From Planctomycetota bacterium (GTDB taxonomy: Bacteria; Planctomycetota; UBA1135; GCA-002686595), in NCBI GenBank assembly GCA_038757895.1, contig JBCDGE010000012.1, positions 1 to 64,000 of the forward strand: a stretch of DNA of 64,000 nt. The letters run 5' to 3'. Shown here one piece after another: positions 30,379 through 46,565 of this stretch (the stretch's first letter is position 1; every line of letters starts with the position of its first letter). Under the pieces are notes generated by a model. The model was given only the letters and a program-made list of their open reading frames with translations, searched no databases and had not been told where the DNA came from. Both the position numbers and the translations under genes were made by a program.

Positions 30379-32076
30379 ATGACCCTACCCACCGCCCCTG
30401 CCGCGCTCGCTGCAGCGCCCATCCCCCAGATCCCCGTTCCGATCGAGATCTGGATCGCGCTCGCCGCGGCGCTGATCCTCTTCGGGTTCGTCTTCGCGAT
30501 CGCGCGGCGCTACAAGCGCTGCCCGTCGAACCGCATCCTCGTCGTCTACGGACGCACCGCGAAGGGCCAGTCCTCGAAGCCGATCCACGGCGGCGGCACG
30601 TTCGTCTGGCCGCTGATCCAGAGCTACGACTTCATCTCGCTGGATCCGATGCAGATCGAGATCCCGCTGGAGGGCGCGCTCTCCCTAGAGAACATCCGCG
30701 TGAACGTGCCGAGCGTCTTCACGGTCGCCGTCGGCACCGAGCACGAGATCATGAACAACGCGGCGATCCGCCTCCTCGGTCTGACGCAGTCCGAGGTGAT
30801 GAAGCAGGCCGAAGACATCATCTTCGGCCAGCTCCGCCAGGTGATCGCGTCGATGCGGATCGAGGAGATCAACCGCGACCGCGACGTGTTCCTGTCGCGC
30901 GTCCAGGGCTCGCTGGAGCCCGAGCTCGCGAAGATCGGCCTCGTGCTGATCAACGTGAACATCAAGGACATCACCGACAGCTCCGGGTACATCGAGGCGA
31001 TCGGCCAGAAGGCCGCGTCCGAGGCGATCCAGCAGGCGGCGATCGACGTCGCCGAGCAGGAGCGCCACGGCTCGATCGGAGTCGCGGAGGCCCTGAAGGT
31101 GCAGGCGATCGAGGTCGCCGAGCGCGAGAAGGTCAGGGACATCGGCACCAAGGAAGCCGAGCGCGAGCGCGCCGTCCGGATCGCGGACCTCGACAAGGAG
31201 CGCGAGATCGGCGAGAAGCAGGCGGCGTTCGAGCAGGAGGCCCAGGTCCGCGACGCCGAGCGCGAGATGCGGATCCAGGTCGCGGCCGCGAACGCCAAGG
31301 CGGTCGACGGCGAGAACGAGGCGAAGGCTCAGATCGCGTCGGCCAACGCGTCGCTGAAGGTGCGCGAGGCCGAGGCCTACCAGACGGGTGAGACGCGCGA
31401 GCGCGAGGCCAAGGCCGCGGTGCTCGAGGCCCAGTACCTCGCCGAGGCGAAGGCCGCCGAGGCCGAGGCCAAGAAGATCGAGGCCGAGAAGCGCGCCGAG
31501 CTCGAGGCGTCGGCGCGAGCCGAGAAGGCCGAGACGATCGTCGCGGCCCAGGCGCAGGCCGAGAAGGACCGGATCCGCGCGGAGGGCGAGGCCGCCGCGA
31601 TGTTCGCCCGCCTCGACGCCGAGGCGCGCGGTCAGTACGAGATCCTCAAGAAGAAGGGCGACGGTCTCCGCGAGATCGTCAGCGCGTGCGGCGGCTCCCA
31701 GCAGGCGTTCCAGATGCTCATGCTCGAGCACATGGACCACCTCGCCGAGACGGCCGCGACGGCGATCTCGAACATCAAGTTCGACAAGGTCGTGGTCTGG
31801 GACGGCGCCGGAGGCGGCGGTGACGGACAGGGCAGCTCCAGCACGAGTCGCTTCCTGCAGTCGCTCGCCGGCTCCCTCCCGCCGACTCTCCAGATGATGC
31901 GAGACATCGGCGGCGTCGAGATGCCGGAGTTCCTCGGCAAGCTGGTCAACGAGAACGGCGCGCCCCAGCGCGACGTGGCGGCCGAAGAGGTCGCGGCTGC
32001 GGACGACGATGCCACCGAGGAGCCGGCGGCGGAGAACGGCGCCGCGACGGCCGGCGCGGACACGAACGAGGTGTGA
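30379..32076 (+). CDS. Flotillin-family (SPFH/band-7) protein with long Glu/Ala-rich coiled coil
   Basis: N-terminal TM, SPFH domain (RILVVYGRTAKG...FVWPLIQSY...), extensive EA-rich heptad region. Start 2 nt after the NfeD stop. Confidence 0.85.
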   Translation: MTLPTAPAALAAAPIPQIPVPIEIWIALAAALILFGFVFAIARRYKRCPSNRILVVYGRTAKGQSSKPIHGGGTFVWPLIQSYDFISLDPMQIEIPLEGALSLENIRVNVPSVFTVAVGTEHEIMNNAAIRLLGLTQSEVMKQAEDIIFGQLRQVIASMRIEEINRDRDVFLSRVQGSLEPELAKIGLVLINVNIKDITDSSGYIEAIGQKAASEAIQQAAIDVAEQERHGSIGVAEALKVQAIEVAEREKVRDIGTKEAERERAVRIADLDKEREIGEKQAAFEQEAQVRDAEREMRIQVAAANAKAVDGENEAKAQIASANASLKVREAEAYQTGETREREAKAAVLEAQYLAEAKAAEAEAKKIEAEKRAELEASARAEKAETIVAAQAQAEKDRIRAEGEAAAMFARLDAEARGQYEILKKKGDGLREIVSACGGSQQAFQMLMLEHMDHLAETAATAISNIKFDKVVVWDGAGGGGDGQGSSSTSRFLQSLAGSLPPTLQMMRDIGGVEMPEFLGKLVNENGAPQRDVAAEEVAAADDDATEEPAAENGAATAGADTNEV

Positions 32077-32406
32077 CCTCTGCCGGATCCGAGCTGACCT
32101 GCCCGACAGGACTCACTCTGTTGAGGATGCGAAATCGAGACGGTGGGCGTTGGCGTATGGGCGCGCCCTGCCCGCCGCAATTGTCATGAGGAGGAGAGCA
32201 GGCCCATTCCAGATGACCGGCGTCGTTTCGATACGACGAATGACTGGGCGGATGCACGTGCGCCCGCCGTCGAACCACAGGGCGATCGTGACCGAACGCT
32301 ACCGACGTCCCTAGTGTCACGTCGCCCAAGACAGGCCCGCCGCCCCCGCCTTGCTATCAGGCCGAGACGGGGACGGGGGCCCTCACTGATTCACCCGGAG
32401 GTGAAC

Positions 32407-32682
32407 GTGAAACTGAATAGGAAGCGTACCGCTCAGCGGTCCGAATGGCACTTCGATGAGACTGATCGACCGTTCCACGAGCATCCTGAACTCCCCAGGC
32501 GCGCTCGAATTCTAGTCAAGGTGGCATATTTGCGGCTCCTCGTCGCGCTGCGCCGCCTGATCAGAGTCTGCACGCAGCTCATGCAGGCCGTCGTCAAGTG
32601 GATTCACACCGCTGGCTGGAGCGCTCGTGTGGTCCGACTCATCGTTCTGGTCCTCCTCGCAGTCGCGTCCGACGAGGCCTAA
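32407..32682 (+). CDS. Small hypothetical protein with C-terminal TM helix
   Basis: GGAG at 32397-32400 followed by GTG 32407. 91 aa with basic N-terminus and hydrophobic tail (VVRLIVLVLLAVAS). Lies in a lower-GC intergenic stretch. Confidence 0.3.
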   Translation: MKLNRKRTAQRSEWHFDETDRPFHEHPELPRRARILVKVAYLRLLVALRRLIRVCTQLMQAVVKWIHTAGWSARVVRLIVLVLLAVASDEA

Positions 32683-32830
32683 CAGCGATTCCGCGCGAGT
32701 CGCGGGCCGGCCTCCGCGCTGGACGCGGCTCAGGAGCCCGACGCCCCCAGCGGCATCGTTGGTCCACGACTCATGACGACGCCTGACCGGAGGTCTAGCG
32801 ACAGGAGCCGAGCTCCAGGAGAGCGCTAGG

Positions 32831-32869
32831 AAGGGCCCCCTTCATGCCAGCAAGCGGAAGGGGGCCCTT
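32831..32869. repeat. Perfect 12-bp inverted repeat (AAGGGCCCCCTT ... AAGGGGGCCCTT) with 15-nt loop
   Basis: Seen directly in sequence at 32831-32842 and 32858-32869. Intergenic, no flanking U/A tract. Confidence 0.5.
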
Positions 32870-33041
32870 ACTACGAATCTGAGACGAGGCCTCGATGCTG
32901 TTGCCAGCCGTGGGCCCATGCTCCTCGTCGGCAGCAGGAGCAGGGTCGGCCTCCGGCTAGACGAAGACGGCTAATTCGTAGCGCTCTCGCGGTGAGCTGG
33001 CGGCCGGTCGACCACGCGCAACGGAGGTATCCTCCCCGCCC

Positions 33042-34904
33042 GTGACCGACGCGCCCGACAACGCTCGACCGACTTGGAGGGTCGCCGCGCTCGCGGCGGC
33101 CCTCTTCGTCGTTTCGCTTGCGCTGCGCTTCGTCGGGGTCGACCAGGGGCTGCCCCACCGCGGCGAGCCGGACACGTACATCGTCCAGCAGGCGGAAGCG
33201 CTCGTCCTCGACGGACTGACCGACCGCTACCGCGCCGGGTGGAAGTACCCCCACCTCGTCGCGACCGTCGTCGCGGCCGTGCCGGCGGAGGACATCGTTC
33301 GCCCGCCCGACGGCGCTTCTCTGGAGGAGCACGAGCGCGCCGCGACGGCGCTGCACCTTCGGACCCGAAAGGTCGCCGCGGTCCTGTCGGCGCTCGCGGC
33401 GCCGGCGACGTTCCTGATCGCGCTCCGCTTCCTGCCGCTCGCGTGGGCGGCGATGGCCGGGCTGCTGGTCGCTGCGAGCCTCCTCCACGTGTGCTTCAGC
33501 GTGCAGGCGCGGCCGCACGGGCCGGTGTCCGCGTTCGCCGCGCTGGCGCTCCTCGCGTCGCTGCGCTGGGCGGAGCGGCCGACGCTGCTGCGCGCGCTCG
33601 CTCTGGCGGCCGCGTCGGCGTGCGCGGTCGGGTCGCTGCACACGGGCTTCGCGGTGCTCGCACCGATCGCGGTCGCGACGATCGCGGCGCTGCGGAAGAC
33701 CGGCGTCCAGCGCGCGCACGTCGTGGCGGGCCTGCTCCTTGTCGGTGCGCTCGTGGCCGCGAGCACGGCGTGGTTCTACGTGCGCGCCGAGGACGGGTTC
33801 GGCAAGGACCCGACGAAGACGGCCGCCGCCCAGTCGCAGAGGCGCGGCGGGCTCGGATCGGACGAGCTCAACGAGGCCGCGGGCACGGGCCGGAACGTCG
33901 ATACGGAGTACGAGGGTCGCCGCGTCATCCAGTTCAGCGGCCACGTGGTCGCGCTCGACCTGTTCGACGGTGGCGGCTTCGGCGTCGCGTGGCGGACGCT
34001 GAGGACCTACGACCCGCTGATCCTCGCGTTCGCGCTCCTGGGCCTCGCGGCCGCTCTCGCGCGAGCGAGGCCAGGACTGAGCTTCAGCGCGACGTGGATC
34101 GTGCTCGGATTCGGGGTGCCGACGCTGCTGCTCTACGGGCTCTACGCCCGCAGCACGGACCGGTTCCTCCTGATCCTGGTGCCGATGGCGGCACTCGCCG
34201 CGGCGTACGGACTGCGCGTCGTCGCAGCGCGCGTCCCGCGCGTGGGCGGCGTCGTCGCGGGCGTCGCGATCCTCGCCATCACGGTCGCCGCGGCCAACGC
34301 CGCGCGCCTCCGCACGCTGCCGGACACGACGCAGCAGGCCGCTCGCTGGCTGCAGACGAACGTCGACCCGGAGACGTCGGTCCACCTGGCGAACCTGCGC
34401 TCGATCCCCCTCTTCATGCGGCCCAGTGACCTACGCGCGGACATGACGTGGGCGAACGGTCCGTGGGAGTCGTACCAGTGGGCGCTCCTGCGCCCGCGCG
34501 GCAAGTCCGTGCGCGGCGAGCGCGACGTCCCCACCGAGCCGACCCTGGAGGGCCCGCGTCGCCTCGGCCGCAACCTGGTCTACCCGACGACGGCCGAGCA
34601 GTACCGCATGGTCCTGAGCGACCGCCCGAGCGAGGTCGCGACCGAGATCCTCGACGGCGCAGCGCCCGACCGCGCGATCCTCGCCGTGCACCCCACCGTC
34701 CACGCGGGCCCGGTCGACCACTGGGCGCTCGCGAAGGCCTGGCGCACGCCGCTGCAACAGGAGCCGTGGCGCCAGGTCCACCGGATCGAGAACGGCCTCG
34801 CGGACGACGAGCCCGCGATGGAATACCGCCTCGACTTCTGGAAGGTGCTGCGCGCGCGCGCGTACGGATCGACGCTGGAGATCTACGCGGCGGCTACGCC
34901 CTAG
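33042..34904 (+). CDS. GT39/GT83-like (ArnT/PMT-like) membrane glycosyltransferase
   Basis: 620 aa, multiple N-terminal TM helices with a conserved acidic loop (RGEPDTYIVQQAE). Large C-terminal periplasmic domain. Confidence 0.65.
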   Translation: MTDAPDNARPTWRVAALAAALFVVSLALRFVGVDQGLPHRGEPDTYIVQQAEALVLDGLTDRYRAGWKYPHLVATVVAAVPAEDIVRPPDGASLEEHERAATALHLRTRKVAAVLSALAAPATFLIALRFLPLAWAAMAGLLVAASLLHVCFSVQARPHGPVSAFAALALLASLRWAERPTLLRALALAAASACAVGSLHTGFAVLAPIAVATIAALRKTGVQRAHVVAGLLLVGALVAASTAWFYVRAEDGFGKDPTKTAAAQSQRRGGLGSDELNEAAGTGRNVDTEYEGRRVIQFSGHVVALDLFDGGGFGVAWRTLRTYDPLILAFALLGLAAALARARPGLSFSATWIVLGFGVPTLLLYGLYARSTDRFLLILVPMAALAAAYGLRVVAARVPRVGGVVAGVAILAITVAAANAARLRTLPDTTQQAARWLQTNVDPETSVHLANLRSIPLFMRPSDLRADMTWANGPWESYQWALLRPRGKSVRGERDVPTEPTLEGPRRLGRNLVYPTTAEQYRMVLSDRPSEVATEILDGAAPDRAILAVHPTVHAGPVDHWALAKAWRTPLQQEPWRQVHRIENGLADDEPAMEYRLDFWKVLRARAYGSTLEIYAAATP

Positions 34905-35063
34905 GCTGGCGCCAATACTGATAGCCACCCCCTTGAGTCTCGACGCTCTTCGAGAACCTAAGAACAGAGAGTCGGTGTCCCCCGTCTGGCAGAGCGTGAT
35001 CTGCTAGATTCTAATGAGTAGGAGACCGTAGCGGCCAGACGCGTAGGCCACTCAAGTCATGCA

Positions 35064-35720
35064 CTAGCGACTCCGCCCATCAGCCATTTGCAGTCCATGC
35101 TGAGCAAGCTCGGTCAATATTTGCTCCAAGCGCGCCTCTTTAATTCCAGGCGTCTCCAGCAGCTGGTCAGCTGTCATACTGCACAGCTGCTCAATACTCC
35201 CGATGCCGGAGTCACGAAGGCATCGATAGACACTCTGATCGAACTCGATCTGCAAACCTGTTCGCGCGACGACCCATCGCTCGGCCCCTGTACTCAACCC
35301 AACAGTTGCTTCATGGATCATCGAGACGATCCGATCGAGCCGTTCCTTCACCGCCTGCTGGGCTTCCTCTCGACCGAACAGGTAAAGATGACTCGCAATC
35401 GCAGCCTCCCTGATCAGGTACGGCGAAACGGACCAAGCTCCTCCTATATCGGCAAGGCAGCGAAGGGCCTGAAATCGACGATCTGGCTGCTCCGAGAGGT
35501 ACAAGACAGCGCGCTTCATCTGCAAGTGCAGACTATCTACTTCTCTTTCTTCGTCGCTGCAGTGGAACCACTCCTCGTACGCACTAATAGTCTGCAGTAG
35601 CGCCTCTCGCACCTCAGAGGAGTCAATCAAAGGACGTGACCAATCCACCCCGATTTCCCTGGCCACGCTATGCTGGCTCCGCCGTCTCGCGAGCAGCGAA
35701 CTCTCTGTCCATCTGATCAA
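35064..35720 (-). CDS. Protein with C-terminal RNA-polymerase alpha-subunit CTD-like helix-hairpin-helix domain (island gene D)
   Basis: C-terminus VYRCLRDSGIGSIEQLCSMTADQLLETPGIKEARLEQILTELAQHGLQM aligns with the RpoA alpha-CTD pattern (SVRSANCLK...I..LV.....ELL...N.GKKSL.EIK..L...GL.L). About 150-aa N-terminal domain unassigned. Low-GC island. Start uncertain (53-nt overlap with the upstream gene if ATG 35720). Confidence 0.5.
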   Translation of the reverse strand: MIRWTESSLLARRRSQHSVAREIGVDWSRPLIDSSEVREALLQTISAYEEWFHCSDEEREVDSLHLQMKRAVLYLSEQPDRRFQALRCLADIGGAWSVSPYLIREAAIASHLYLFGREEAQQAVKERLDRIVSMIHEATVGLSTGAERWVVARTGLQIEFDQSVYRCLRDSGIGSIEQLCSMTADQLLETPGIKEARLEQILTELAQHGLQMADGRSR

Positions 35721-36216
35721 GAATCATACCAACCGGACGATTTCGCTTCCTGAACATTTGTTCCTCTGGAACTCCAAGCGCCGATAGCCGCTGCTGATAC
35801 TCATCTACGAGAAACTCACTCAGTACGCCAACCCGGGCTGAGTCGTACCCAGCCCGGACCGCTTCTGCAGCGAAGTCTAGGCCAGCAGGCACACCGGCAC
35901 GAAACATGCTGTCGACTCGCGACGGCACTTCAAGATCGATAAGTATGTAGGTAAACCGATCGCGCATCACCTCGAAAGCTTCATGGGCCTCGGCGTGAGA
36001 TCGGGCTAGCACGACTACGAATCTCTCACCAAGATCTCTGACACGATCAATCGTGGTCGAATCATCCTCCAAATGCAGCACGACGGCGCGATCGTCGCAG
36101 CGGTTGACACGCCGCAAGGCTACACTATAGGCGTGGCCCGCACCCTCAGCATCATCAATGGGGGGCAAACGCCGTCTCCCCAGCGCTGATCTCAGCCACT
36201 TGACTGCTCGCTTCAT
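35668..36216 (-). CDS. Stand-alone response-regulator receiver (REC) domain protein (island gene C)
   Basis: VVLHLEDD (acidic pair), FTYILIDLEVPS (phospho-acceptor Asp context) and VGVLSEF (conserved Ser/Thr) in REC-like spacing. No output domain. 182 aa. Confidence 0.5.
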   Translation of the reverse strand: MKRAVKWLRSALGRRRLPPIDDAEGAGHAYSVALRRVNRCDDRAVVLHLEDDSTTIDRVRDLGERFVVVLARSHAEAHEAFEVMRDRFTYILIDLEVPSRVDSMFRAGVPAGLDFAAEAVRAGYDSARVGVLSEFLVDEYQQRLSALGVPEEQMFRKRNRPVGMILDQMDREFAARETAEPA

Positions 36217-36318
36217 TGCAAACTACCCCCCATCAGCGAGCCACTGATGGAATCCGGCTCCAACTGGAGTTGGAAGACTAGCGCGCTGCAATCCGCTCGC
36301 GCAATTGACGTCGATGCC

Positions 36319-37218
36319 TCAGCCATGAAACGACGGTGCAGCAGGAAGCCGCATCTCGACTTTGAATCTTCTTGGATTACCTGAAGTGATAAGTGGGTCG
36401 CCTGTCAGTGTCAGGCGCCCACCTTGCGACTCCACAGCCGATCGGGCGAGACTAAGCCCAAGTCCAGAGCCCTGTTTCGGCCGCTCACGGCGAGCTTCCT
36501 CTCCGCGCACACCGGGAGCGGCTAGATAGTCTAGCGAAAGCTCTTCCCGAAGCAAAGGTACGCCAAATGAAGAGATCGAAAGAACGACCTCGCGCGGCAT
36601 GGACAGATTCCTGCCAACAAGCTCGATGTATCTGCCGCTTCCTCTAAAGGAATATTTCACGGCGTTATGCACCAAATTATAGACCGCCACCCTAATTGGC
36701 TCAGCGTACCCAAGAACCCATCCTCGGCCATGAAACTGCGACACGAAGCGAATGCCCGCACTCGCAGCATCCTCGCCAAACACCTCTGACGCTGCCTGTA
36801 CCTGCTCGTAGAGATCGAAGCGCTCCTTTCGCCCAGCGTCCGCCCAGTACCCGGAGTCTAGTGCGGTGATCGCATTCAGGCAGGACAGTTGCATCCGGTC
36901 GATTCTCCCGGCGAGCCGCATACACAACGCCTTGGACGAAGACGATTCGTCAACTTCAACCAGTCCTTTGACGGCGCTGTATAGACCAGTCGCAGGGGTG
37001 ACGCGTGTCTCAGACGCTTGCGCCTCCACGTAGGCAGGACTCGCTAGGATCCCCGAGAGAAGAGCGTGGTAGAGGGCGCTCACATCGTGCAATGCAGCGA
37101 TCGCAATCCGACTCGATTCCTCCATTAGCAATGCGTTGGGCTGGGCATAGACAGTATTCGCGTTACTCATCGGGAAGCATGAAGTCGCGAATGAGGTTCG
37201 AGTCGAGCTCCGCTTCAC
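36319..37218 (-). CDS. Soluble histidine-kinase-like protein (DHp + HATPase_c; no sensor or TM domain) (island gene B)
   Basis: Candidate H-box IAIAALHDVSALYH. N-box VYNLVHNAVKYS. G2-box GSGLGLSLARSAVESQGG. Probable start is ATG ending 37170, giving an 8-nt overlap (ATGAGTAA) with the upstream gene stop. Confidence 0.55.
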   Translation of the reverse strand: MKRSSTRTSFATSCFPMSNANTVYAQPNALLMEESSRIAIAALHDVSALYHALLSGILASPAYVEAQASETRVTPATGLYSAVKGLVEVDESSSSKALCMRLAGRIDRMQLSCLNAITALDSGYWADAGRKERFDLYEQVQAASEVFGEDAASAGIRFVSQFHGRGWVLGYAEPIRVAVYNLVHNAVKYSFRGSGRYIELVGRNLSMPREVVLSISSFGVPLLREELSLDYLAAPGVRGEEARRERPKQGSGLGLSLARSAVESQGGRLTLTGDPLITSGNPRRFKVEMRLPAAPSFHG

Positions 37219-38947
37219 GGAGCCAAGTCAGCGTGTCGCTATGCAAGACGTCTACTGTAGGCGCACCACACATTCTCGCAGCCGAAAGTGCAGCGATGCC
37301 TCTCGCGGCGATCATTGAAACGCTACGCCGCTCTTCATCTCGATTTGGCGTACCATCATCCGGCGTCGCCGCTACCGCGTTGTTTAGAATTACGGGGCTG
37401 CCCAAGATCGCGGCTGCGCGCGGTAGATCAATAGAGTCCGCGTACTCTCCGAGAAGCGAGTAGTACTCGGCGATAGTGATGTAGACTTCACGACGAGCGG
37501 CGCCGGGCGCCTCGATCTCCGACTCTAGCGACAGTATGGTTTGACACGTACGTTTGAGAAAGCGCTGGGCGCCGCGCAAGCCGCAGTCCTCTCTGAGGAA
37601 CCGCACTGTCGCAGCTGCATGAGCGATCTCCTTACCTCCAACCCACGTTTCTTTCCCATACTCGTCAATCCATAGACGGATCGCACGCAGTCGGATGTCT
37701 GCGAGATTATTCACAGCACGCAAGACTGAGAAACGCGAAGTAAATCGGTCCGGTTCGCCGGAATAGCACGAATGCGCCCGCTCCAGAAGATCGAAGCGAG
37801 TTAGTGCCTCGCCGCTTGTCGCACTGACTAGCCTAAGATCGCGAAAAGCCGAATCTTCGCGGAGGGCGTCTGTCGCCCACTCGCCGTGTTCCTCGGCAAG
37901 CGAGATATAGGCGATTGCACGAGCAGATTGACGCATTGATAACCCTGTCGCACCGCTGCTAGCCTGTAGGCTCGATTCGATTAAGCCGGTGAGGGCCAAA
38001 ACGCGTAGAGCATTGCGAACGCGCTCGTCCGCCCCACGAGCCGTTGCATTATTCAACGCTACGCAGACCAGAGATGCGAGCATCGCATCCGGCGGAGTTA
38101 TCTGCTGACATCGATCGGCAAACTCGTCCGTGAATTCGACGCAGCTCGACCCGGACCAAATCAGCTGTGGGTAGGTCAAGGCAAGTCTGTCTACCGACGC
38201 TTCAAAGGCTCCCCTCCCTTGCGGTTGAACAAAGAGAGAGTGGCAGGCGCCCTCAAGCCCACGCCATCCGAACTCTGCGCGCTTCGCCGACTGTGGCGAA
38301 AGCTCGGCAGACGCAATTAATGGGCGCAGCTGCGACAGAGGCGTATACTCGAGTGCTGACCCAGACGCGAGTGCGAGTACTGCAAGTTCGCGGCTGCTCG
38401 GATTCGAAGCGTAGATTACTGTTCGCCGGAAACCGACGACACCAAGTGCGACGATCGACGCAGCAACGACGATGCCAGCTCTGCGGTCCCGTCGTCTTCG
38501 AAATTCGACGCGACGTTGGCGGTCGGCGAGAGTGTGCATCTGGGTAACGAGGTCGTACCAGTTCGGCTCGTCTGGCTCAAGCTGTTGATACCTAGCACTG
38601 GTGCCGTCTGTGCCAGCTTCTGGTTTGCCGACTTCTTCGGTCGGTCGAGCGGCACGAACTCCATGCTCATCGCTCAGTCGTAGCGCGTCGCCCAGCGGGG
38701 CAAAGTTCCCGCTTGTTGCTGGCGGAACGGCTAGCAGAATCCTGTACACACGCGGGATGAGCAAGAACAGTAGGCCGAGAGCGGCAGCCGCCGTCATTAG
38801 CGACGTTGCCCCGAGACGCTTGGGCGCGGTCCGCCAGAGGTCTCGAACTTGAAGATAAGACGCAGGATCAAACAACCAACTCTCAAAGAGCAGGCCGATC
38901 GTACCGAGGATCAGAAGGGCTGCGCCGACCTTGCGGGTGCGGTCCAT
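37163..38947 (-). CDS. Large membrane protein of unknown function (3 predicted TM helices + about 380-aa soluble domain) (island gene A)
   Basis: Start placed at MDRTRKVGAALLILGTIGLLF (ATG ending 38947). No recognisable motif. Low-GC. The N-terminal 82 codons of ORF 37163..39193 are probably not translated. Confidence 0.45.
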   Translation of the reverse strand: MDRTRKVGAALLILGTIGLLFESWLFDPASYLQVRDLWRTAPKRLGATSLMTAAAALGLLFLLIPRVYRILLAVPPATSGNFAPLGDALRLSDEHGVRAARPTEEVGKPEAGTDGTSARYQQLEPDEPNWYDLVTQMHTLADRQRRVEFRRRRDRRAGIVVAASIVALGVVGFRRTVIYASNPSSRELAVLALASGSALEYTPLSQLRPLIASAELSPQSAKRAEFGWRGLEGACHSLFVQPQGRGAFEASVDRLALTYPQLIWSGSSCVEFTDEFADRCQQITPPDAMLASLVCVALNNATARGADERVRNALRVLALTGLIESSLQASSGATGLSMRQSARAIAYISLAEEHGEWATDALREDSAFRDLRLVSATSGEALTRFDLLERAHSCYSGEPDRFTSRFSVLRAVNNLADIRLRAIRLWIDEYGKETWVGGKEIAHAAATVRFLREDCGLRGAQRFLKRTCQTILSLESEIEAPGAARREVYITIAEYYSLLGEYADSIDLPRAAAILGSPVILNNAVAATPDDGTPNRDEERRSVSMIAARGIAALSAARMCGAPTVDVLHSDTLTWLREAELDSNLIRDFMLPDE

Positions 38948-39508
38948 ACGTTTGGCGTCTACTTGACGAGAGGCGTTGGCAGGTGCGACTCCGTCGAGCT
39001 CGAGATTCTTGGGGCAGGAACTATGCGACAATCCTGACGTCGTCGCCTTGCGGTGGCGCTCGTTTGATTCTTCAGCGCGACTGCGAGAACTGCAACCCGT
39101 CGCAGATGATCCTTGTGCCGGAGTTGCGCAAAAGGGGCCAAGCGATCGCGACCTGGGCGCCTTGACAACGTGACAGGGGAGCGCCGGACGCAAAACCGTC
39201 CCATATGCGGGACGGCCCGAACGGGACCTCGATGCCGTTTCGCTCGTGGTCGTCGCACTCGAACGAGTCTGGCTCGCTCCCGCGCGATGGCCAAGCAGTG
39301 AGGGCTCCGTGTACTACACCGTCGGCGGCGGAGAGATGTCGAGGCTGCTGGTCGACGGCTCGCGCGACGCAGCTGCTGCGATCAGCGCTCGGCGACACGC
39401 CAGAAGTCGAAGAGTCGCCCTCCGAACCGAGTCGACTGCAGCCGCGATCTGTGCGGTCGTTGCTCCAGGACGAAGCGTGTGTCCTGGCCCGAGTGAGTTG
39501 TGTGTCGA

Positions 39509-40900
39509 TCATCCGCGCGCCACCGAGATCGTCTTCGGTACCGTGAACTGGCGGTGCCCGTCCGGGCCGCCGTGGAAGCCGTAGCCCGACTGGCGCGCGC
39601 CCACCCACGGCGAGCCCGGCGCGCCGCCGAGGTAGCGGTTCACCCCCACCTGGCCCGCGCGGATGCGGGACGCCACGCGCTCGCCGCGGCGGCGGTCCGC
39701 GGTCCAGACGTTCGCGCCCAGGCCGTACACCGTGTCGTTCGCGAGGCGCACCGCCTCGTCCTCGTCGCCGCTGAAGCGCGTCACCGCGACCACGGGGCCG
39801 AACGTCTCGACGTGCGTGATGCGGTGGTCCTGCTCGACGCCGGTCAGCACCGTCGCCGGGTAGAACCAGCCGGGACCGTCGGGGGTGGCGCCGCCGACGC
39901 GCAGCTGCGCCCCGTCCGCGACCGCGTCCTCGACCTGCTCGGCGACCTTGGCGCGCTGGTCCTCGCTCACGAGCGGGCCCATCTTCACGCCCTTCTCGCG
40001 ACCGTCGCCGTGGGTCCACTCGCGCGCGAGTTCGACCACGCGCTCCTCGAACGCGTCCGCCACCTCGTCGGCCACGTAGACGCGCTCGATCGAGCAGCAG
40101 ACCTGGCCCGTGTTGCGGAGCGAGTGTTCGACCGCTGACTTCGCCGCTTCTTCGACGTCCGCGTCCGCGAACACGACCATCGGGTCCTTGCCGCCGAGCT
40201 CCAGCACGAGCCGCTTCAGCGTCCCGACCGCGGCGTGCATGATCTTCTGGCCCGTGTCGCGGCTGCCGACGAACCCGACCATGTCGACGTCTGCGTCCAC
40301 GAGCGCCGCGCCGGTCCGTCCGTCGCCCTGGACGAGCACGAGCACGTCCTCGGGCAGCACCTGCTGCAGCAGCTCTGCGATCCGCGCGCCGGCGAGCGGC
40401 GTGTGCTCGCTCGGCTTGAACACGACCGTGTTGCCGGCGACCAGCGCCGGGACCAGGATCGTCAGCGGCATCCCCACCGGGAAGTTCCACGGCGTGATCG
40501 CCGCCACGACGCCGTGCGGGTCGCGGACCGTGCGCACCGTCTGGCCCTCGATGTCGTAGGTGATCGGCGCCAGTGACTCGACGATCTCGGCGGTCTTCGG
40601 AGCCACACCGATGGCGTAACCCTTGACCTCGCCGACCGACGTCCTGAGCGTCTTCCCCATCTCGCGGGTCGCGAGCAGCCCGAGCGCGTCGGCGTCCCTG
40701 CCCAGCGCCTCCCCGAAGCGGTCGAGCGCCGCGGCACGCTCCTCGATGGGCGTGGCCGCCCAGCCGTCGGCGGCAGCGCGCGCCCGCGCGACGGCCTGCA
40801 CGACCTCGTCGGACGTGGCGCAGGGGATCTCGGCGATCAGCTCGCCGGTGGCGGGGTCGATGTCGCGGATCGTGCGCGCGTCGCTGGCAACGGAGGTCAT
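39509..40900 (-). CDS. NAD(P)-dependent aldehyde dehydrogenase
   Basis: ITPWNFP, FKPSEHTP, VLELGGKDP (catalytic Glu), GQVCCSIERV (catalytic Cys), GFFYP-like WFYPATVL. 463 aa. Confidence 0.85.
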   Translation of the reverse strand: MTSVASDARTIRDIDPATGELIAEIPCATSDEVVQAVARARAAADGWAATPIEERAAALDRFGEALGRDADALGLLATREMGKTLRTSVGEVKGYAIGVAPKTAEIVESLAPITYDIEGQTVRTVRDPHGVVAAITPWNFPVGMPLTILVPALVAGNTVVFKPSEHTPLAGARIAELLQQVLPEDVLVLVQGDGRTGAALVDADVDMVGFVGSRDTGQKIMHAAVGTLKRLVLELGGKDPMVVFADADVEEAAKSAVEHSLRNTGQVCCSIERVYVADEVADAFEERVVELAREWTHGDGREKGVKMGPLVSEDQRAKVAEQVEDAVADGAQLRVGGATPDGPGWFYPATVLTGVEQDHRITHVETFGPVVAVTRFSGDEDEAVRLANDTVYGLGANVWTADRRRGERVASRIRAGQVGVNRYLGGAPGSPWVGARQSGYGFHGGPDGHRQFTVPKTISVARG

Positions 40901-40973: not shown

Positions 40974-43349
40974 TTGGAATCCACACCTCACTCCTGGACC
41001 CGCACGCGCGAGGTCTTCCTCGAGCTGGCCGACCTGGGCGCCGGGGCCCGGAGCGAGGCGCTCGATCGGCTCCGCGCGTCGGACCCCGCCCTGGCGCGCG
41101 AGGTCGCAGAGCTCCTCGACCACGACCTCGACGCGACCGAGCTGCCCGCGGAGTCGTCCAACGCGCGCTTCGGCCCCTACGTTGCCATCGAGCGCATCGG
41201 CGCCGGCGGCATGGGCGAGGTCTACCTCGCACGCCGCGACGACGGCGAGTTCGAGCGCGAGGTTGCGGTCAAGGTCCTGCGCGGCGGCGCCGCAGGACCG
41301 GACCTGACGGCCCGCTTCCAGCGCGAGCGACAGACCCTCGCCGCCCTGAGCCACGAGTCGATCGTGCGGCTGCTCGACGGCGGGACGACCGCGGACGGCC
41401 GCGCGTACTTCGTCATGGAGTACGTCGAGGGGCTCAACCTCGACCACCACGCGCGCGACCTCGGACGCCGCGAGCGCCTGGAGCTCTTCCTGCGCGTGCT
41501 CCACGCCGTCGCGCACGCCCACGGGCGAGGCGTCGTGCACCGAGATCTCAAGCCCTCGAACATCCTCGTCCGCGCCGACGGCGCGGTGCGGCTCGTCGAC
41601 TTCGGGATCGCGCGCCTCCTGGGGACGGACCCGGAGCTCGGACGGGGCCAGACGCTCACGCGGACGGGGCAGCGCGTGTTCACGCCCGAGTACGCGAGCC
41701 CCGAGCAGGTCGGCGGGGAGCGCACGTCCCCCGCAACGGACGTCTTCGCGCTCGGCGTGATCCTGTACGAGCTGCTGGCGGGCAGCTCGCCCTGGCCCTC
41801 GGGTGGGACCACGCACGACCTGGAGCGAGCGATCCTGGAGGCGAGCCCGCCGGCGCCCAGCCGCCGCGCGACCGGAACCCAGGCGCGCGCGCTCCGGGGC
41901 AACCTGGACACGATCGTCCTGAAGTGCCTGGAGCGCGATCCTGCGCGGCGTTACCCGGATGCCGCCGCGCTCGCGGCGGACATCGAGCGCGAGCTCAGCG
42001 GACGCACGATCGAGGCGCGCCGCGCCACCGCGCTCGAGCGCGGCCTTCGCTTCGTCCGCCGTCGGCCCTGGCACACGCTCGCGGCCGCCTCGTCCGTCGT
42101 GGCCATCGTGGCGGCGGGCCTCGTCCTCGTCTCCCGCGGCGAGGAGACGCGACGCCAGGGGGCACTGGCCGACCAGATGCCCGACCGGCTCGCGGCCGTC
42201 CACGGCCTGATCCAGGCGCGTGCGTTCGACCGCGCGGAGTCCCAGCTCGCGCGGGCGGCCGAGGACATCGCGTCCCTCTCGGACGCGGGTGCGCTCGACG
42301 CCCTCCGTCGCCTGCGCGTCATGGAGCTCGAGCTGGCGCAGGGTCGATCGGCGCGCGTCCTGGACGAGGTCGAAGCCGCGCGCTCCGTCGCCGCGTTCGA
42401 GTCTCCCGACCACGTGCACCTCGCGCTGGAGCTGCGCTTCTTCGAGGCCAACGCGCTCGCCGGCCTGGGTCGGATCCCGGAGGCGGAGCGGGTGGCCCGC
42501 GAGACCATGAAGGCCGCCGAGGGCGTCCTGCCGGCTTCCCACTCGATCCGGATCGACCTGGCGACGATCCTCGCCCGCGCGCACCTGGAGCGCGGCGAGC
42601 TCGACGCGGGTCACGAGCTGCTGGAGTCGGTCCGGCAGCCGGCCCTGGAGCGTGGGATCGAGAACGACCCGGTCGTCGCGCGGATCGACGGACTCCTCGG
42701 TCGCTGGCTCCGCGAGGTCGGCCGCCCGAAGGAGGCGCTCGAGCGCCTGGAGAGCGCTCGCTCGGCCCTGCGCTGGAGCTACGGCGACCGCCACCCCGAC
42801 GTCGCCGAGCTCACGATGGTCCTCGCTCGCATCCGCTTCGAGCAGGGAGATCTCGACCGCGCATGGGAGGAGATCCAGGCCGCGCGCGCCGCGTTCCGCG
42901 CGTTCAACAGCCCGATGATGCGGGCCTACCTCCTGGAGCTCGCGAGCCACGTCGCGTCCGCACGCGGAGACCTGGAAGGGAAGCTCGGCGCGCTGGAGGA
43001 GAACCTGGAGAACGTCGAGACCCACCTCTTCCCCGACTTCCGGCCGCAGTGGTGCGTCAGCCAGATGCACCGCGGCATCACGCTGGGCGAGATGGGCCGG
43101 CTCGACGAGTCGATCGAGGCGTTCGAGGCGGCGCTCGCTCCGGCACCGGGCAGCGACGTGCCGGCGGTCGCTCCGAAGGGACCCCAGGTCGAGGCCGAGA
43201 TCCGCGCGAGCTTCGCGGAGGTCCTTCGCGCAGCGGGGTTCCCGGACGAGGCGCGCGACGAGTTCGCGCACGCCGCGGACCTCTTCGAGGAGGCCCTCGG
43301 TGCGGACCATCCCGTGACGAAGAAGGCGCGCGCGCTCGGCGGCGGCTGA
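40974..43349 (+). CDS. Serine/threonine protein kinase with C-terminal TPR-repeat domain
   Basis: Hanks kinase motifs: GAGGMGEVY, VAVK, HRDLKPSNIL, DFGIAR, SPEQ. About 500-aa TPR-like helical C-terminus. 791 aa. Confidence 0.8.
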   Translation: MESTPHSWTRTREVFLELADLGAGARSEALDRLRASDPALAREVAELLDHDLDATELPAESSNARFGPYVAIERIGAGGMGEVYLARRDDGEFEREVAVKVLRGGAAGPDLTARFQRERQTLAALSHESIVRLLDGGTTADGRAYFVMEYVEGLNLDHHARDLGRRERLELFLRVLHAVAHAHGRGVVHRDLKPSNILVRADGAVRLVDFGIARLLGTDPELGRGQTLTRTGQRVFTPEYASPEQVGGERTSPATDVFALGVILYELLAGSSPWPSGGTTHDLERAILEASPPAPSRRATGTQARALRGNLDTIVLKCLERDPARRYPDAAALAADIERELSGRTIEARRATALERGLRFVRRRPWHTLAAASSVVAIVAAGLVLVSRGEETRRQGALADQMPDRLAAVHGLIQARAFDRAESQLARAAEDIASLSDAGALDALRRLRVMELELAQGRSARVLDEVEAARSVAAFESPDHVHLALELRFFEANALAGLGRIPEAERVARETMKAAEGVLPASHSIRIDLATILARAHLERGELDAGHELLESVRQPALERGIENDPVVARIDGLLGRWLREVGRPKEALERLESARSALRWSYGDRHPDVAELTMVLARIRFEQGDLDRAWEEIQAARAAFRAFNSPMMRAYLLELASHVASARGDLEGKLGALEENLENVETHLFPDFRPQWCVSQMHRGITLGEMGRLDESIEAFEAALAPAPGSDVPAVAPKGPQVEAEIRASFAEVLRAAGFPDEARDEFAHAADLFEEALGADHPVTKKARALGGG

Positions 43350-43925: not shown

Positions 43926-44117
43926 GGCCGGAGGGTACGGCGATCGCTCCGACCGCAGGCCCGGCGCGCTGGCCGTTGCCGCCTTTTTTCGAACTCGGTG
44001 TCGGCCCACGGGCGGGGCCTGCACTCGGGGGGGTGAGGCCGCGGGACAAGGGTGCCCGGGCCGACCCGAACCCCCTGAAGAAACCGGCGCGGAGCACGCC
44101 TCCGCGCGGATCGACCG

Positions 44118-46565
44118 ATGACACCGACCACTCGTTCCTTCCTGTCCCCCCGCGCTCTCATGCTCGCGATGGGACTCCCCCTGGGAGTCCTCGCGCCGGC
44201 CTCGGCACAGTCTCTCGATGGGGCCTTCGACGGCACCGGCTCCGAGTCCGTCGAGGCGTCCGCGCCCCGCTCCTTCCAGGTCCGCGATCTCCTGGACGCC
44301 CCCCTGATCGACGCGACCGCCGAGCCGGGCGCGGTCTGGACGCGCGATCGCAACCAGCGCCTGCGCTTCGGCGAGGGCTCGATCGAGGTCCTCCCGGTCT
44401 TCGGCACGAACTCGCCCCAGGAGTGGCCCGTCGAGATCACGGTGCACGGGGCGACGGTCGGCGCCGAGTCCCTGAACGTGACCCCAACGGGCGCCCCCAT
44501 CGTCCTGGAGTCCCGCGTCGTCCAGCCCCGTGCGGCGCTGCGCGGCGTCCACCACCTCGGACGCGACGGGTTCGAGCAGACCTTCGTCTTCGACACGCTC
44601 CCGACGCGCGGTGAGCTCTCCCTGCTGCTCGGCGTCGAGACCGAGCTCGGGGTGGAGACCGGAGGCGGCGCGCTGTCGTTCGTCCACCCGACGCTCGGGC
44701 GCGTCGACGTGGGCGAGGCGACCGCGATCGACGCCGACGGGCGTCGCTCACCGGTCGAGCGCCGCTGGGTCGGCGAGGGCATCGAGCTCGTCGTCCCCGC
44801 GGACTTCGTCGAGACCGCCCAGCTGCCGCTGACCATCGACCCGGTCTGGCAGACCTTCGTGAACGACTTCGGCGCTCCGGACGATGGCCACTCGGACATC
44901 GTCTACGCGGGTGAGTCGCAGCGCTACGTGTTCGTGTGGGAGGAGTTCACCTCTCTGGTGAACCGGGACGTCTACGCGACGTTCCTCGACGCTTCGCTGA
45001 ACAACCAGGGCAACGCGATCGCGATCGACATGACGAACGAGGATTGGACTGCGCCTGCGATCGCGTACGCCAACCTGGAAGATCGTGTGCTCATCGCAGC
45101 CACGGCGCTCAACGGCACCAGCTCGCGCCGCGTCGCCGGGCGTCTCGTGAACGTCGGTTCATTCACTCCCTTCGGAGGGACTCTCTCGATCAGCACGATC
45201 GGGACGACGATCAAGAGCAGCGTCGACGTCGGCGGCTCGAACGCGATGAGCTCGATCCAGTCGAACTTCGCGGTGACCTGGTCGCGCCAGACAGGAAGCG
45301 GCAACGGCAACATCGAGCACCGCATCGTCAAGTCCGACGGCACGTTCGTGACGCCCGTGGTCACCGTGGACTCCTCGAGCGCCAACGACATACAGGTCGC
45401 GATCTCCCAGGGACTCGGAGATACGTCGCTGCTGGGCGACAACTGGCACCTCGTGTGGATCCGCGAGGGCAACAACGACGATCGGGGCGATCTCTTCGGC
45501 AAGCGCCTCTACTACAACGGCAGCCAGGCGTCCTCGTCGGACCAGTTCCTGATCGACTCGTCCGGCGACTACGCGCACCCCGACGTCAGTTCTCTCTTCG
45601 ACGAGCCCGACGCGTTCACCGGAGAGCGCGGCGCGATCGTCGTCGCCGAGGCGTTCAAGTTCGACAACCTCCGTCCGGGCGGATACCGGACAGACATCGA
45701 GGCGCGCCTGATCAGCGACGACGACTTCACGGGCGAGCGGCTCTACCTCAGCGCCATGGAGGACGCCGAGCGCCAGCTCCTTCAGGCGCGACCGCGGGTC
45801 GCAACGGACGGGACGGCGTTCTACGTCACGTACATGGAGGAGGAGCCGACGATGATCAACGGCGGTGTCTGGAACATCTTCATGACGTCCGGCGACACCA
45901 TCGAAGGCACCCTGCGGAGCGGCGTCGCCCTCGGCGAGCGCCACGTCGAGCTCGCGGCCGCCCTCGGCTCGGAGTCGGACGTCAGCGTGACGACGCGCTG
46001 GAACGGTGAGAGGAACTCGGCGTCGAAGGAGGGAGTTGCGATCTGGACGGTCGTCGACGACAACCTCGCCGGCGGCTACGGCCAGATCGATGGAGCTGGC
46101 TTCGAGCACATCCTTCCCTTCATCACGCCGATCCGCTCGGTGGGCGTCCAGTACGGCGAAGCACTCCTCACGTCGTCCGATGACGATGCAACGGGCTGGA
46201 TGCGCATCTTCGGCAACCAGAATCGATCGACCACTCACATCGCCCAGGCGATCGACCTTCCGCCGGACGTCTTCGGGTTCCTGCTCGTCTCGCGCGAGCC
46301 GGGGCAGGTGAACTTCCCCGGCGGCAGCTCGGGTCGGCTCCTCCTCGGGGGACAGATCGGTCGCTACGTGGACCAGATCACGTCCAGCGGGACCTTCGGT
46401 CGAATGAGCTTCAACATCGATCCGTTCGACCTGCCCCAGCCCGCCGGCGCAGCGTCGGCTCTCGTCAACGAGACCTGGCACTTCCAGGCATGGCACCGCG
46501 ACTCCGTGAATGGCCAGCCCACGTCGAACCTGACGAACGGCGTGCGGGTGACGTTCAAGAACTGA
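44118..46565 (+). CDS. Large secreted protein of unknown function with conserved C-terminal about 95-aa domain
   Basis: Signal peptide (MLAMGLPLGVLAPASAQS). 815 aa, Ser/Thr/Gly/Asp-rich beta-like sequence. C-terminus homologous to the C-terminus of the S8 peptidase at 58281..60137. Confidence 0.6.
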   Translation: MTPTTRSFLSPRALMLAMGLPLGVLAPASAQSLDGAFDGTGSESVEASAPRSFQVRDLLDAPLIDATAEPGAVWTRDRNQRLRFGEGSIEVLPVFGTNSPQEWPVEITVHGATVGAESLNVTPTGAPIVLESRVVQPRAALRGVHHLGRDGFEQTFVFDTLPTRGELSLLLGVETELGVETGGGALSFVHPTLGRVDVGEATAIDADGRRSPVERRWVGEGIELVVPADFVETAQLPLTIDPVWQTFVNDFGAPDDGHSDIVYAGESQRYVFVWEEFTSLVNRDVYATFLDASLNNQGNAIAIDMTNEDWTAPAIAYANLEDRVLIAATALNGTSSRRVAGRLVNVGSFTPFGGTLSISTIGTTIKSSVDVGGSNAMSSIQSNFAVTWSRQTGSGNGNIEHRIVKSDGTFVTPVVTVDSSSANDIQVAISQGLGDTSLLGDNWHLVWIREGNNDDRGDLFGKRLYYNGSQASSSDQFLIDSSGDYAHPDVSSLFDEPDAFTGERGAIVVAEAFKFDNLRPGGYRTDIEARLISDDDFTGERLYLSAMEDAERQLLQARPRVATDGTAFYVTYMEEEPTMINGGVWNIFMTSGDTIEGTLRSGVALGERHVELAAALGSESDVSVTTRWNGERNSASKEGVAIWTVVDDNLAGGYGQIDGAGFEHILPFITPIRSVGVQYGEALLTSSDDDATGWMRIFGNQNRSTTHIAQAIDLPPDVFGFLLVSREPGQVNFPGGSSGRLLLGGQIGRYVDQITSSGTFGRMSFNIDPFDLPQPAGAASALVNETWHFQAWHRDSVNGQPTSNLTNGVRVTFKN

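Follow-up and report, generated by a model that had tools for sequence, protein, structure and literature searches.

A lower-GC islet of four orphan genes, including a likely kinase-like pseudoenzyme, at a variable core-gene junction of a Saltatorellus-clade planctomycete

We analyzed a lower-GC insert in contig JBCDGE010000012.1 (assembly GCA_038757895.1), which belongs to a metagenome-assembled genome (MAG) of a Saltatorellus-clade planctomycete; the first 64,000 nucleotides of this contig are referred to here as the window. Two convergent conserved genes enclose the insert (34905..39508, 4,604 bp, with no strand of its own), which reaches from one stop codon to the other and is filled by four tightly packed minus-strand open reading frames (ORFs), which we call isl1, isl2, isl3 and isl4 in 5'-to-3' order. 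The data firmly support a recent acquisition: the four orphan genes form a lineage-specific operon, and the core-gene junction that holds them is variable. The explanation that we favor goes further and combines, as a single account, horizontal transfer of the 4.6-kb islet out of a donor whose GC content was roughly 55 to 60% with a module that was derived from a two-component system and works without His-to-Asp phosphotransfer. We give this combined explanation a probability of about 0.55.

The composition of the segment clearly differs from that of its surroundings. GC content was 57.9% in 34905..39200 versus 72.2% in the remaining window, a deviation of z = -10.2 when all non-overlapping 4.3-kb windows (0.694 to 0.756; standard deviation, 0.014) are taken as the reference. 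The sliding-window profile showed a plateau of 55 to 60% GC from just past 34900 to ∼39200, after which GC ramps up again and exceeds 70% by 39500. None of the 1-kb bins of the 64-kb window outside the segment fell below 65.5% GC. Such a sharp break had been proposed by an earlier inspection of the same DNA (here, the original prediction), and both the GC profile and tetranucleotide usage bear it out: the tetranucleotide-usage deviation of the island correlates with the rest of the window at 0.63, versus 0.89 to 0.97 for non-overlapping 4-kb windows. The size of the drop had been overstated, however, at roughly 50% GC, since the segment lies at ∼58% and only its lowest 100-bp windows, few in number, reach 52 to 55%.

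Codon usage is visibly different as well, as had been claimed. The GC content at third codon positions (GC3) was 0.55 to 0.60 in isl1 to isl4, versus 0.83 to 0.96 in the three flanking genes measured and 0.80 to 0.98 in every plausible host frame in the window, and synonymous codon choice within the island is almost flat. We calibrated these values on 79 aldehyde dehydrogenase orthologues with gene GC contents of 35 to 74%. In this set, a typical 58%-GC gene has GC contents of ∼0.64/0.44/0.66 at the first, second and third codon positions (GC1/2/3), and the GC3 deficit of the island is mild at most (0.55 to 0.60 versus an expected 0.66 ± 0.035). By this standard, isl1 to isl4 resemble ordinary genes from a donor whose GC content was roughly 55 to 60%; Planctomycetota in this range are present among the related loci that we fetched (e.g., L021). 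We also considered the seemingly odd excess of GC1 over GC3 in the island as a special signal and dropped it, GC3 being lower than GC1 in 6 of 46 comparable genes.

The genes on either side of the insert are conserved. On the left, the plus strand carries a gene for a 620-aa multi-pass membrane protein (33042..34904; GC3, 0.94), and on the right, the minus strand carries an aldehyde dehydrogenase (ALDH) gene (39509..40900; Pfam Aldedh, 1e-143; GC3, 0.96). For comparison, we gathered 80 related loci with ALDH as the anchor and searched them by tblastn with the flanking and island proteins; a genome scan with the left flank protein as the query had given no match, and the ALDH query succeeded. 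None of the 80 loci contained a homologue of any of the four island proteins. Similarity to the relatives in blastn stops at 34891 on the left and at 39511 on the right, i.e., at the stop codons of the anchor genes, and the lineage-specific DNA therefore comprises 34905..39508. At 4.6 kb, this stretch without homology to relatives is longer than the 4.3 kb originally assigned to the island.

The original prediction had looked to synteny in relatives for confirmation of an insertion, and two of the loci, L003 and L005, indeed have the left-flank membrane-protein orthologue directly beside the ALDH gene, in convergent orientation and with gaps of ∼240 bp and ∼35 bp. The dehydrogenase of the closest relative, L002, is 79% identical, and at this locus ∼2.9 kb separates the two anchor genes. 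This interval holds two tandem paralogues of 512 and 487 aa (57% mutual identity) which have the native GC content of 66 to 72% and are unrelated to the island. Horizontal acquisition of the islet is thus supported, because the site is empty in L003 and L005 and carries a different, native-GC cargo in L002. Among Saltatorellus-clade planctomycetes, the content of the ALDH/membrane-protein junction varies.

The related loci available for the junction number four and are distant, the anchor membrane protein being 41 to 53% identical in L002, L003 and L005 and 92% identical in the fourth, L082. The latter is a 1.1-kb metagenome contig with ∼95% identity at the DNA level, whose sequence ceases to match the window over the last four codons of the membrane-protein gene (…FAAVRD-stop versus …YAAATP-stop) and ends 17 nt past its stop. 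The divergence is abrupt when L082:1080-1134 is set against window positions 34885-34925, which suggests that the variable DNA begins a few codons before the stop. The alternative cargo of L002 occupies L002:2146-5132, between the ALDH gene at 854-2242 and the membrane-protein gene ending at ∼5161. By eye, the C-terminal part of its two paralogues is alpha/beta-hydrolase-like; they are absent from the window, and a homologue lies downstream of the ALDH gene in L069. The L005 contig (JBLIHL010000232.1) is labeled as a Paracoccaceae MAG but is probably misbinned, given its planctomycete-type ALDH (74% identity) and the adjoining membrane-protein orthologue (45%).

An abrupt change in composition might also arise if the DNA of another organism had been joined into the planctomycete contig during assembly. 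A contig of the Logan assembly, made independently from the same sequencing run (L001), spans window positions 34793..39781 with 0 mismatches and includes both junctions. This Logan contig is 4,989 bp long and ends 112 bp and 273 bp outside the two island junctions, and such close ends, which could stem from graph branching near the island, would suit a chimera. Against this stand the exact agreement of two assemblers across both junctions, the position of both breaks at stop codons of conserved genes that neighbor each other in relatives, the need for two precise joins and the independent variability of the junction in L002. With two assemblers in agreement at each junction and both breaks falling on conserved stop codons, we regard a chimera as very unlikely. 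The shortness of the Logan contig may reflect branching of the assembly graph due to strain heterogeneity around the island or, alternatively, low coverage.

As would be expected of a mobile island, the islet deviates in composition and is missing from the syntenic site of relatives. Nevertheless, it is not a classic integrative element. The tRNA scan found no tRNA gene in the 64-kb window, the repeat scan found only short, imperfect and chance-like direct repeats or terminal inverted repeats at the flanks, and neither the four island proteins nor the flank genes include an integrase, transposase or relaxase. The island proteins had no phage-family match among the PHROGs, apart from generic HATPase matches of isl2, and tblastn searches revealed no similarity of isl1 to phages and plasmids or of isl3 and isl4 to plasmids. 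The "classic horizontal-acquisition signature" of the original prediction therefore stands as to acquisition, by virtue of the empty site and the composition, and falls as to "classic," with integrase, tRNA and repeats all missing.

Mobility machinery is not recognizable, and relatives have either nothing or other genes at the site. This pattern fits site-specific integration less well than recombination through the conserved flanks that added or replaced DNA there, which is the most economical inference. The concept of flexible (replacement or additive) genomic islands between conserved core genes comes from the pangenome literature on marine bacteria. The present locus resembles such islands in that one core-gene junction can lack any insert, hold two hydrolase-like paralogues or hold a four-gene cassette, and in that the four-gene islet has no integrase or att-like repeats. 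It differs in the material at hand, namely, four distant related loci, which do not reach strain-level replacement dynamics.

As originally noted, the four genes share one strand and occur nowhere else in the window, where no paralogue of any of them was found. Their packing suggests an operon: isl2 begins within the end of isl1, with 8 nt in common, and the isl4 start lies 1 nt past the isl3 stop. In a cluster look-up covering about 15 billion proteins, all four were singletons. GC1 exceeds GC2 in all four genes, and the chance of a frame of 594 codons, the length of isl1, staying open at the GC content of the island is ∼6.5e-10. Judged by these coding statistics, the four frames are real genes or stopped being so only very recently. 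An exact-sequence NCBI record exists for isl1 only, and the exact sequences of isl2, isl3 and isl4 come from Logan gene calls only; the deposited annotation of the MAG probably has other starts for these three or omits them.

The functional part of our explanation hinges on isl2 (36319..37170, minus strand), which encodes a soluble protein of 283 aa with an apparent remnant of the HAMP AS2 helix, DHp-like helices and a HATPase_c domain. The match to HATPase_c (PF02518) is well above threshold (E = 7.7e-9; 36.4 bits versus a cutoff of 26.4), and isl2 also matches HK853-type kinases in the PDB. Its closest relatives are canonical HAMP-HisKA-HATPase_c kinases of 27 to 30% identity, the word-indexed search otherwise returning generic kinases. 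In pairwise and multiple alignments alike, the match of isl2 to canonical kinases starts at the HAMP AS2 helix, covers the DHp region and runs on to the C terminus. The protein starts within HAMP and lacks both membrane and sensor parts. It had been described as a sensorless HisKA/HATPase kinase. The HATPase_c domain and the lack of a sensor part proved correct, but no HisKA-type Pfam family matched isl2 at E <= 1, and the canonical His is absent.

In a MAFFT alignment with nine kinases, the H-box-equivalent segment of isl2 is AQASETRVTPATG (36985..37023, minus strand). The phospho-acceptor column of this alignment holds His in all nine kinases and Glu54 (codon 37009..37011) or Ser53 in isl2; in pairwise BLASTP, E54 stands opposite the His of P0011 (ungapped), and S53 stands opposite that of P0013 (gapped). 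The T-P-x-T context beside the His position is conserved in isl2, including the Thr at +4, a residue that is important for phosphatase activity in HisKA kinases. The only His residues among residues 1 to 120 are H28 and H35, both of which are located in the HAMP-AS2-like helix.

The HATPase_c domain (36340..36702, minus strand) gives a similarly mixed picture. Both the N box (NLVHNAVKY) and the G2 box (GSGLGLS) are intact and fall in invariant columns of the kinase alignment. The G1 box, D-x-G-x-G, is degenerate and reads S201-F-G203-V-P205 (S201 codon, 36568..36570), with Asp and Gly being present at the altered positions in all nine other kinases. The G1 Asp is the universal adenine-contacting residue across GHKL ATPases. 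Because the acceptor His and this Asp are both replaced, we read isl2 as a likely pseudokinase, for which canonical ATP binding and autophosphorylation appear unlikely.

The third gene, isl3 (35668..36168, minus strand), encodes an orphan alpha/beta protein of 166 aa that forms a singleton cluster; an alternative ATG at 36216 would give 182 aa. The original prediction had called it a stand-alone receiver, a label for which we found no support in Pfam, NCBIfam or the PDB. Searches of these three databases, PADLOC and PHROG gave no match, and Pfam Response_reg did not appear even at E <= 1. Against a profile of six textbook receivers, isl3 scored 2.2 bits, a value equaled or beaten by 20 of 1,000 shuffles, and only the segment ILIDLEVPS aligned, to the phospho-Asp motif. 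The residues E34-D35-D36, D78, S117 and K141 occur in receiver-like order, an assignment made by eye except for the profile-aligned D78 segment, and relative to receivers isl3 has an insertion of ∼9 residues after D78.

Structure prediction was similarly equivocal. The AlphaFold2 (AF2) single-sequence model of isl3 (predicted local distance difference test [pLDDT] score, 49; predicted template-modeling score, 0.40) has alternating strands and helices, a pattern which fits a receiver or any flavodoxin-like or Rossmann-like fold. When this model was searched with Foldseek, the best E value was 0.014, the top matches were TIM-barrel pieces, and receivers appeared only at ranks 12, 14 and 28. The fetched related loci hold almost no receivers. 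A receiver assignment of isl3 is thus possible but not established.

These features of isl2 and isl3 bear on whether the pair could still act as an atypical phosphorelay, in which isl2 would bind ATP and phosphorylate H28, H35 or a residue in trans, or act as a phosphatase only, and isl3 would be a divergent receiver with Asp78 as its acceptor. The preserved N box, G2 box and T-P-x-T context with its +4 Thr would suit such a relay, as would the receiver-like order of acidic, Asp, Ser and Lys residues in isl3, its alternating beta/alpha pattern, the alignment of ILIDLEVPS to the phospho-Asp motif and the few receivers among the weak Foldseek matches. However, the G1-box Asp has become Ser, H28 and H35 sit in the stretch that aligns with HAMP AS2, 19 to 26 residues from the canonical site, and the receiver score of isl3 is reached by 2% of shuffles, with no Response_reg match at the permissive threshold. 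We therefore consider a working relay unlikely.

The same losses raise the question of decay. The islet might be nonfunctional cargo, i.e., a fragment of a recently transferred foreign operon whose two-component genes have been inactivated and are drifting toward loss. The missing catalytic His and G1 Asp of isl2 and its truncation inside HAMP agree with this, and so do the undetectable receiver signatures of isl3, the flat, unadapted codon usage, the lack of a promoter-like site upstream and the singleton status of the genes in all public data. Yet four intact frames with coupled starts and stops fill one strand, the long isl1 frame is very unlikely to have stayed open by chance, and the GC1 > GC2 periodicity is retained; unadapted codons, moreover, indicate recent arrival rather than decay. 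On balance, inert cargo seems an improbable account of the islet.

The first gene of the operon, isl1 (37163..38947, minus strand; ATG to TAA), encodes a protein of 594 aa with GC1/2/3 values of 0.66/0.51/0.59. It is identical to NCBI entry MEM1448595.1, annotated as a hypothetical protein of a Planctomycetota MAG. The original description as a 594-aa protein with three transmembrane segments agrees with hydropathy analysis, which located three hydrophobic segments at residues 7-27, 45-77 and 155-178. These are followed by a C-terminal domain of ∼415 aa that contains all 8 Cys residues, and a cluster of Arg residues before the third hydrophobic segment suggests, by the positive-inside rule, that this domain is probably extracytoplasmic. 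The only sequence that isl1 retrieved was its own, whether 5.8 billion clusters were searched by word index or 1.84 billion representatives were scanned exhaustively with phmmer. It had no match in Pfam, NCBIfam, PADLOC, PHROG, the PDB, plasmids or phages, and it contains no internal repeats.

The last gene, isl4 (35064..35666, minus strand), encodes an orphan singleton protein of 200 aa, which likewise found only itself among the 5.8 billion clusters of the word-indexed search. The protein apparently combines an N-terminal helical domain of ∼135 aa with a C-terminal domain (residues 138-194; 35085..35255, minus strand) that resembles the C-terminal domain of the RNA polymerase (RNAP) alpha subunit (alpha-CTD) and tandem helix-hairpin-helix, (HhH)2, domains. 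The alpha N-terminal assembly domain of RpoA is absent. In Pfam, HHH_5 matched exactly at its cutoff of 27 (27.0 bits; E = 6.4e-6), and RNA_pol_A_CTD remained below its cutoff (21.5 versus 23.8 bits; E = 2e-4). The PDB sequence matches of the domain at E <= 1 were RNAP alpha subunits in 25 of 25 cases, the best at 2.8e-3, and NCBIfam rpoA models matched isl4 only by their last ∼60 positions.

The predicted structure points in the same direction. In an AF2 model of low overall confidence, built from the single sequence, the alpha-CTD-like segment (pLDDT, 63 to 82) was the sole confident part. Foldseek aligned it to isolated alpha-CTD chains with a probability of 1.00 and a root-mean-square deviation of 0.7 to 0.9 Å over 50 to 55 residues (template-modeling score, 0.57 to 0.79, normalized to target length); the E values were weak (0.02 to 0.6) because the domain is short. 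An alpha-CTD-like domain at the end of isl4, as originally proposed, is therefore supported by convergent evidence from sequence comparison and modeling. The likeness nevertheless has limits. Apart from the unrelated helical domain to which it is joined and the Pfam score below cutoff, the domain differs at the positions that contact DNA. These residues constitute the "265 determinant" (R265 group) of alpha-CTD, and in an ungapped HMMER alignment to the Bacillus subtilis alpha-CTD, its R, N, G, K and S positions are occupied by S, R, K, A and R in isl4. The second hairpin of the isl4 domain reads PGIK, which is nearer to classical helix-hairpin-helix motifs. A literature search for "alpha-CTD-like" proteins found nothing.

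If the four proteins work together, the cassette may be a signaling or regulatory module that descends from a two-component system and has lost His-to-Asp phosphotransfer, a mechanism that we propose with low confidence. In this scheme, isl1 would provide the membrane input and be translationally coupled to isl2; isl2, a kinase truncated inside HAMP, would serve as a pseudokinase scaffold in the manner of DivL; isl3 would be a small alpha/beta partner bound by isl2; and isl4 would be the output, its alpha-CTD/HhH-like domain contacting DNA or an RNAP partner. The term "signaling cassette" in the original prediction is borne out only in part and, with its kinase and receiver, says more than the data allow, since the kinase-like protein has neither acceptor His nor G1 Asp and the receiver is without statistical support.

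Compared with a canonical two-component system, the cassette shares the homology of isl2 to the kinases, with intact N and G2 boxes, and a small alpha/beta protein encoded downstream, at the place of the regulator. It differs in that isl2 has no transmembrane or sensor part, no acceptor His, no HisKA match and a G1 box of the form S-x-G-x-P, in that isl3 has neither a detectable receiver signature nor a fused output domain, and in the two extra orphan genes of the operon. The gene set is indeed unlike any canonical two-component operon, as had been predicted.

The best functional analogy for isl2 and isl3 is possibly DivL of Caulobacter crescentus. DivL has Tyr in place of the His, shows no kinase or phosphatase activity and only weak binding of an ATP analogue, and acts by binding the single-domain regulator DivK~P (PMC4211667). 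It keeps the H, N, G1, F and G2 box motifs, contains PAS sensor domains and is a conserved alphaproteobacterial chromosomal cell cycle gene (PMC4211667). What isl2 has in common with DivL is a kinase fold with a substituted acceptor His; unlike DivL, it has Glu or Ser instead of Tyr, has lost G1, has no PAS match and is a foreign singleton. It is not a member of the DivL family, and the comparison is meant as an analogy only, sequence kinship being apparent only at the level of the common superfamily.

Another possible role for horizontally acquired genes of this kind is defense. The islet could be an uncharacterized cassette against phages or mobile elements, with isl1 as the effector, isl2 and its small partner as the sensor or switch and the HhH protein as the nucleic-acid binder. 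Foreign, strain-specific, operonic orphans in a variable junction show the typical population genetics of defense genes. Moreover, isl2 matches the PADLOC candidate model PDC-M43B at 1.5e-7 as well as four PHROG families, and isl4 gave a faint hint of PADLOC WYL (0.008). These matches of isl2 are nevertheless confined to the generic ATPase core (profile positions 226-317 of 347 in PDC-M43B), so that its likeness to component B of PDC-M43, on which a literature search found no paper, goes no further than HATPase_c. The WYL hint was rejected as probable noise, the Pfam and PADLOC matches lying on different residues of isl4, and no other protein of the cassette matches PADLOC. No complete PADLOC-DB v2 system was present, isl1 and isl3 matched nothing, the cassette contains no nuclease, protease, NADase or other recognizable effector domain, and the neighborhood is a housekeeping one rather than a defense island. 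We thus regard a defense function as quite improbable.

Several points weigh against the two-component-derived, phosphotransfer-free module that we favor for the acquired islet. Both assemblies come from one read set. The functional links among the four proteins are inferred from adjacency only, and conservation, co-occurrence and covariation are unusable because no homologues exist. The topology of isl1 rests on hydropathy and charge counts, and isl3 is not demonstrably a receiver. DNA binding by isl4 in the manner of alpha-CTD is doubtful because the R265-group residues are not conserved. The loss of the His and the G1 Asp from isl2 is equally compatible with a decaying gene. Finally, a scan for promoters and terminators performed no better than on shuffles, and a clear promoter was not found upstream of isl1.

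One can imagine a more specific, self-contained module that is independent of phosphorylation, although we consider it a long shot. The orphan membrane sensor would act on the His-less, ATP-blind scaffold and its cryptic receiver-like partner, which would then release or sequester a free-standing mimic of alpha-CTD competing with the RNAP alpha-CTD for activators or promoter DNA. Such a module, if real, would rewire host transcription or block phage transcription after horizontal transfer.

Bacterial genomes and MAGs commonly contain low-GC islets made up of orphan genes. What appears to be undescribed is the present combination of an orphan membrane protein, a kinase fold without His and G1 Asp, a cryptic alpha/beta protein and a free-standing alpha-CTD-like protein. 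If functional, the cassette would add to DivL-type proteins a second, independent case of the histidine-kinase fold being reused without phosphotransfer. In that case, isl2 would be more degenerate than DivL, with the His and the adenine-binding Asp both gone, and would reside on horizontally transferred DNA, and the kinase fold would have as its partner a free-standing alpha-CTD-like protein with a possible effect on transcription. The practical value is limited, since the singletons of one uncultured MAG leave no comparative handle and the functional reading is speculative.

Leader and spacer DNA borders the operon at its two ends. The leader upstream of isl1 (38948..39508, 561 bp, minus strand) has an intermediate GC content of 0.58 to 0.70, shows no homology to relatives and matched no Rfam family at E <= 1. 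A 146-codon frame in this region (39512->39072, minus strand), whose ATG overlaps the ALDH stop codon (ATGA), was considered as a fifth gene and rejected for want of coding periodicity (GC1/2/3, 0.61/0.61/0.73). This frame has no Pfam match, and all six frames there are open for 64 to 146 codons; 39072-39512 is probably noncoding leader DNA of the island. At the other end, a 3' spacer (34905..35063, 159 bp, minus strand) extends from the isl4 stop to the stop of the convergent flanking gene. It contains one weak terminator-like hairpin (34983..34967, minus strand), and terminator-like sites are not enriched over shuffles.

Among the flanking genes, the membrane-protein gene on the left had been labeled GT39 in the original prediction, a family assignment that Pfam does not support, no model matching at E <= 0.01. 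The ALDH on the right has orthologues of 59 to 79% identity in Saltatorellus ferox, Engelhardtia mirabilis and many Planctomycetota MAGs. The wider surroundings consist of housekeeping genes for tryptophan and aromatic amino acid biosynthesis, peptidases, a Ser/Thr kinase with TPR repeats and an SPFH protein. The kinase gene (40974-43349, plus strand) is divergent from the ALDH gene, has native composition, is unrelated to the island and encodes 791 aa with C-terminal TPR repeats. Two milder GC dips (0.63 to 0.67) were seen at 30400-33000 and 44800-46000, in surroundings of 70 to 77% GC; the second falls inside an 828-codon frame (44079..46565, plus strand) that has no Pfam match and a GC3 of 0.90.

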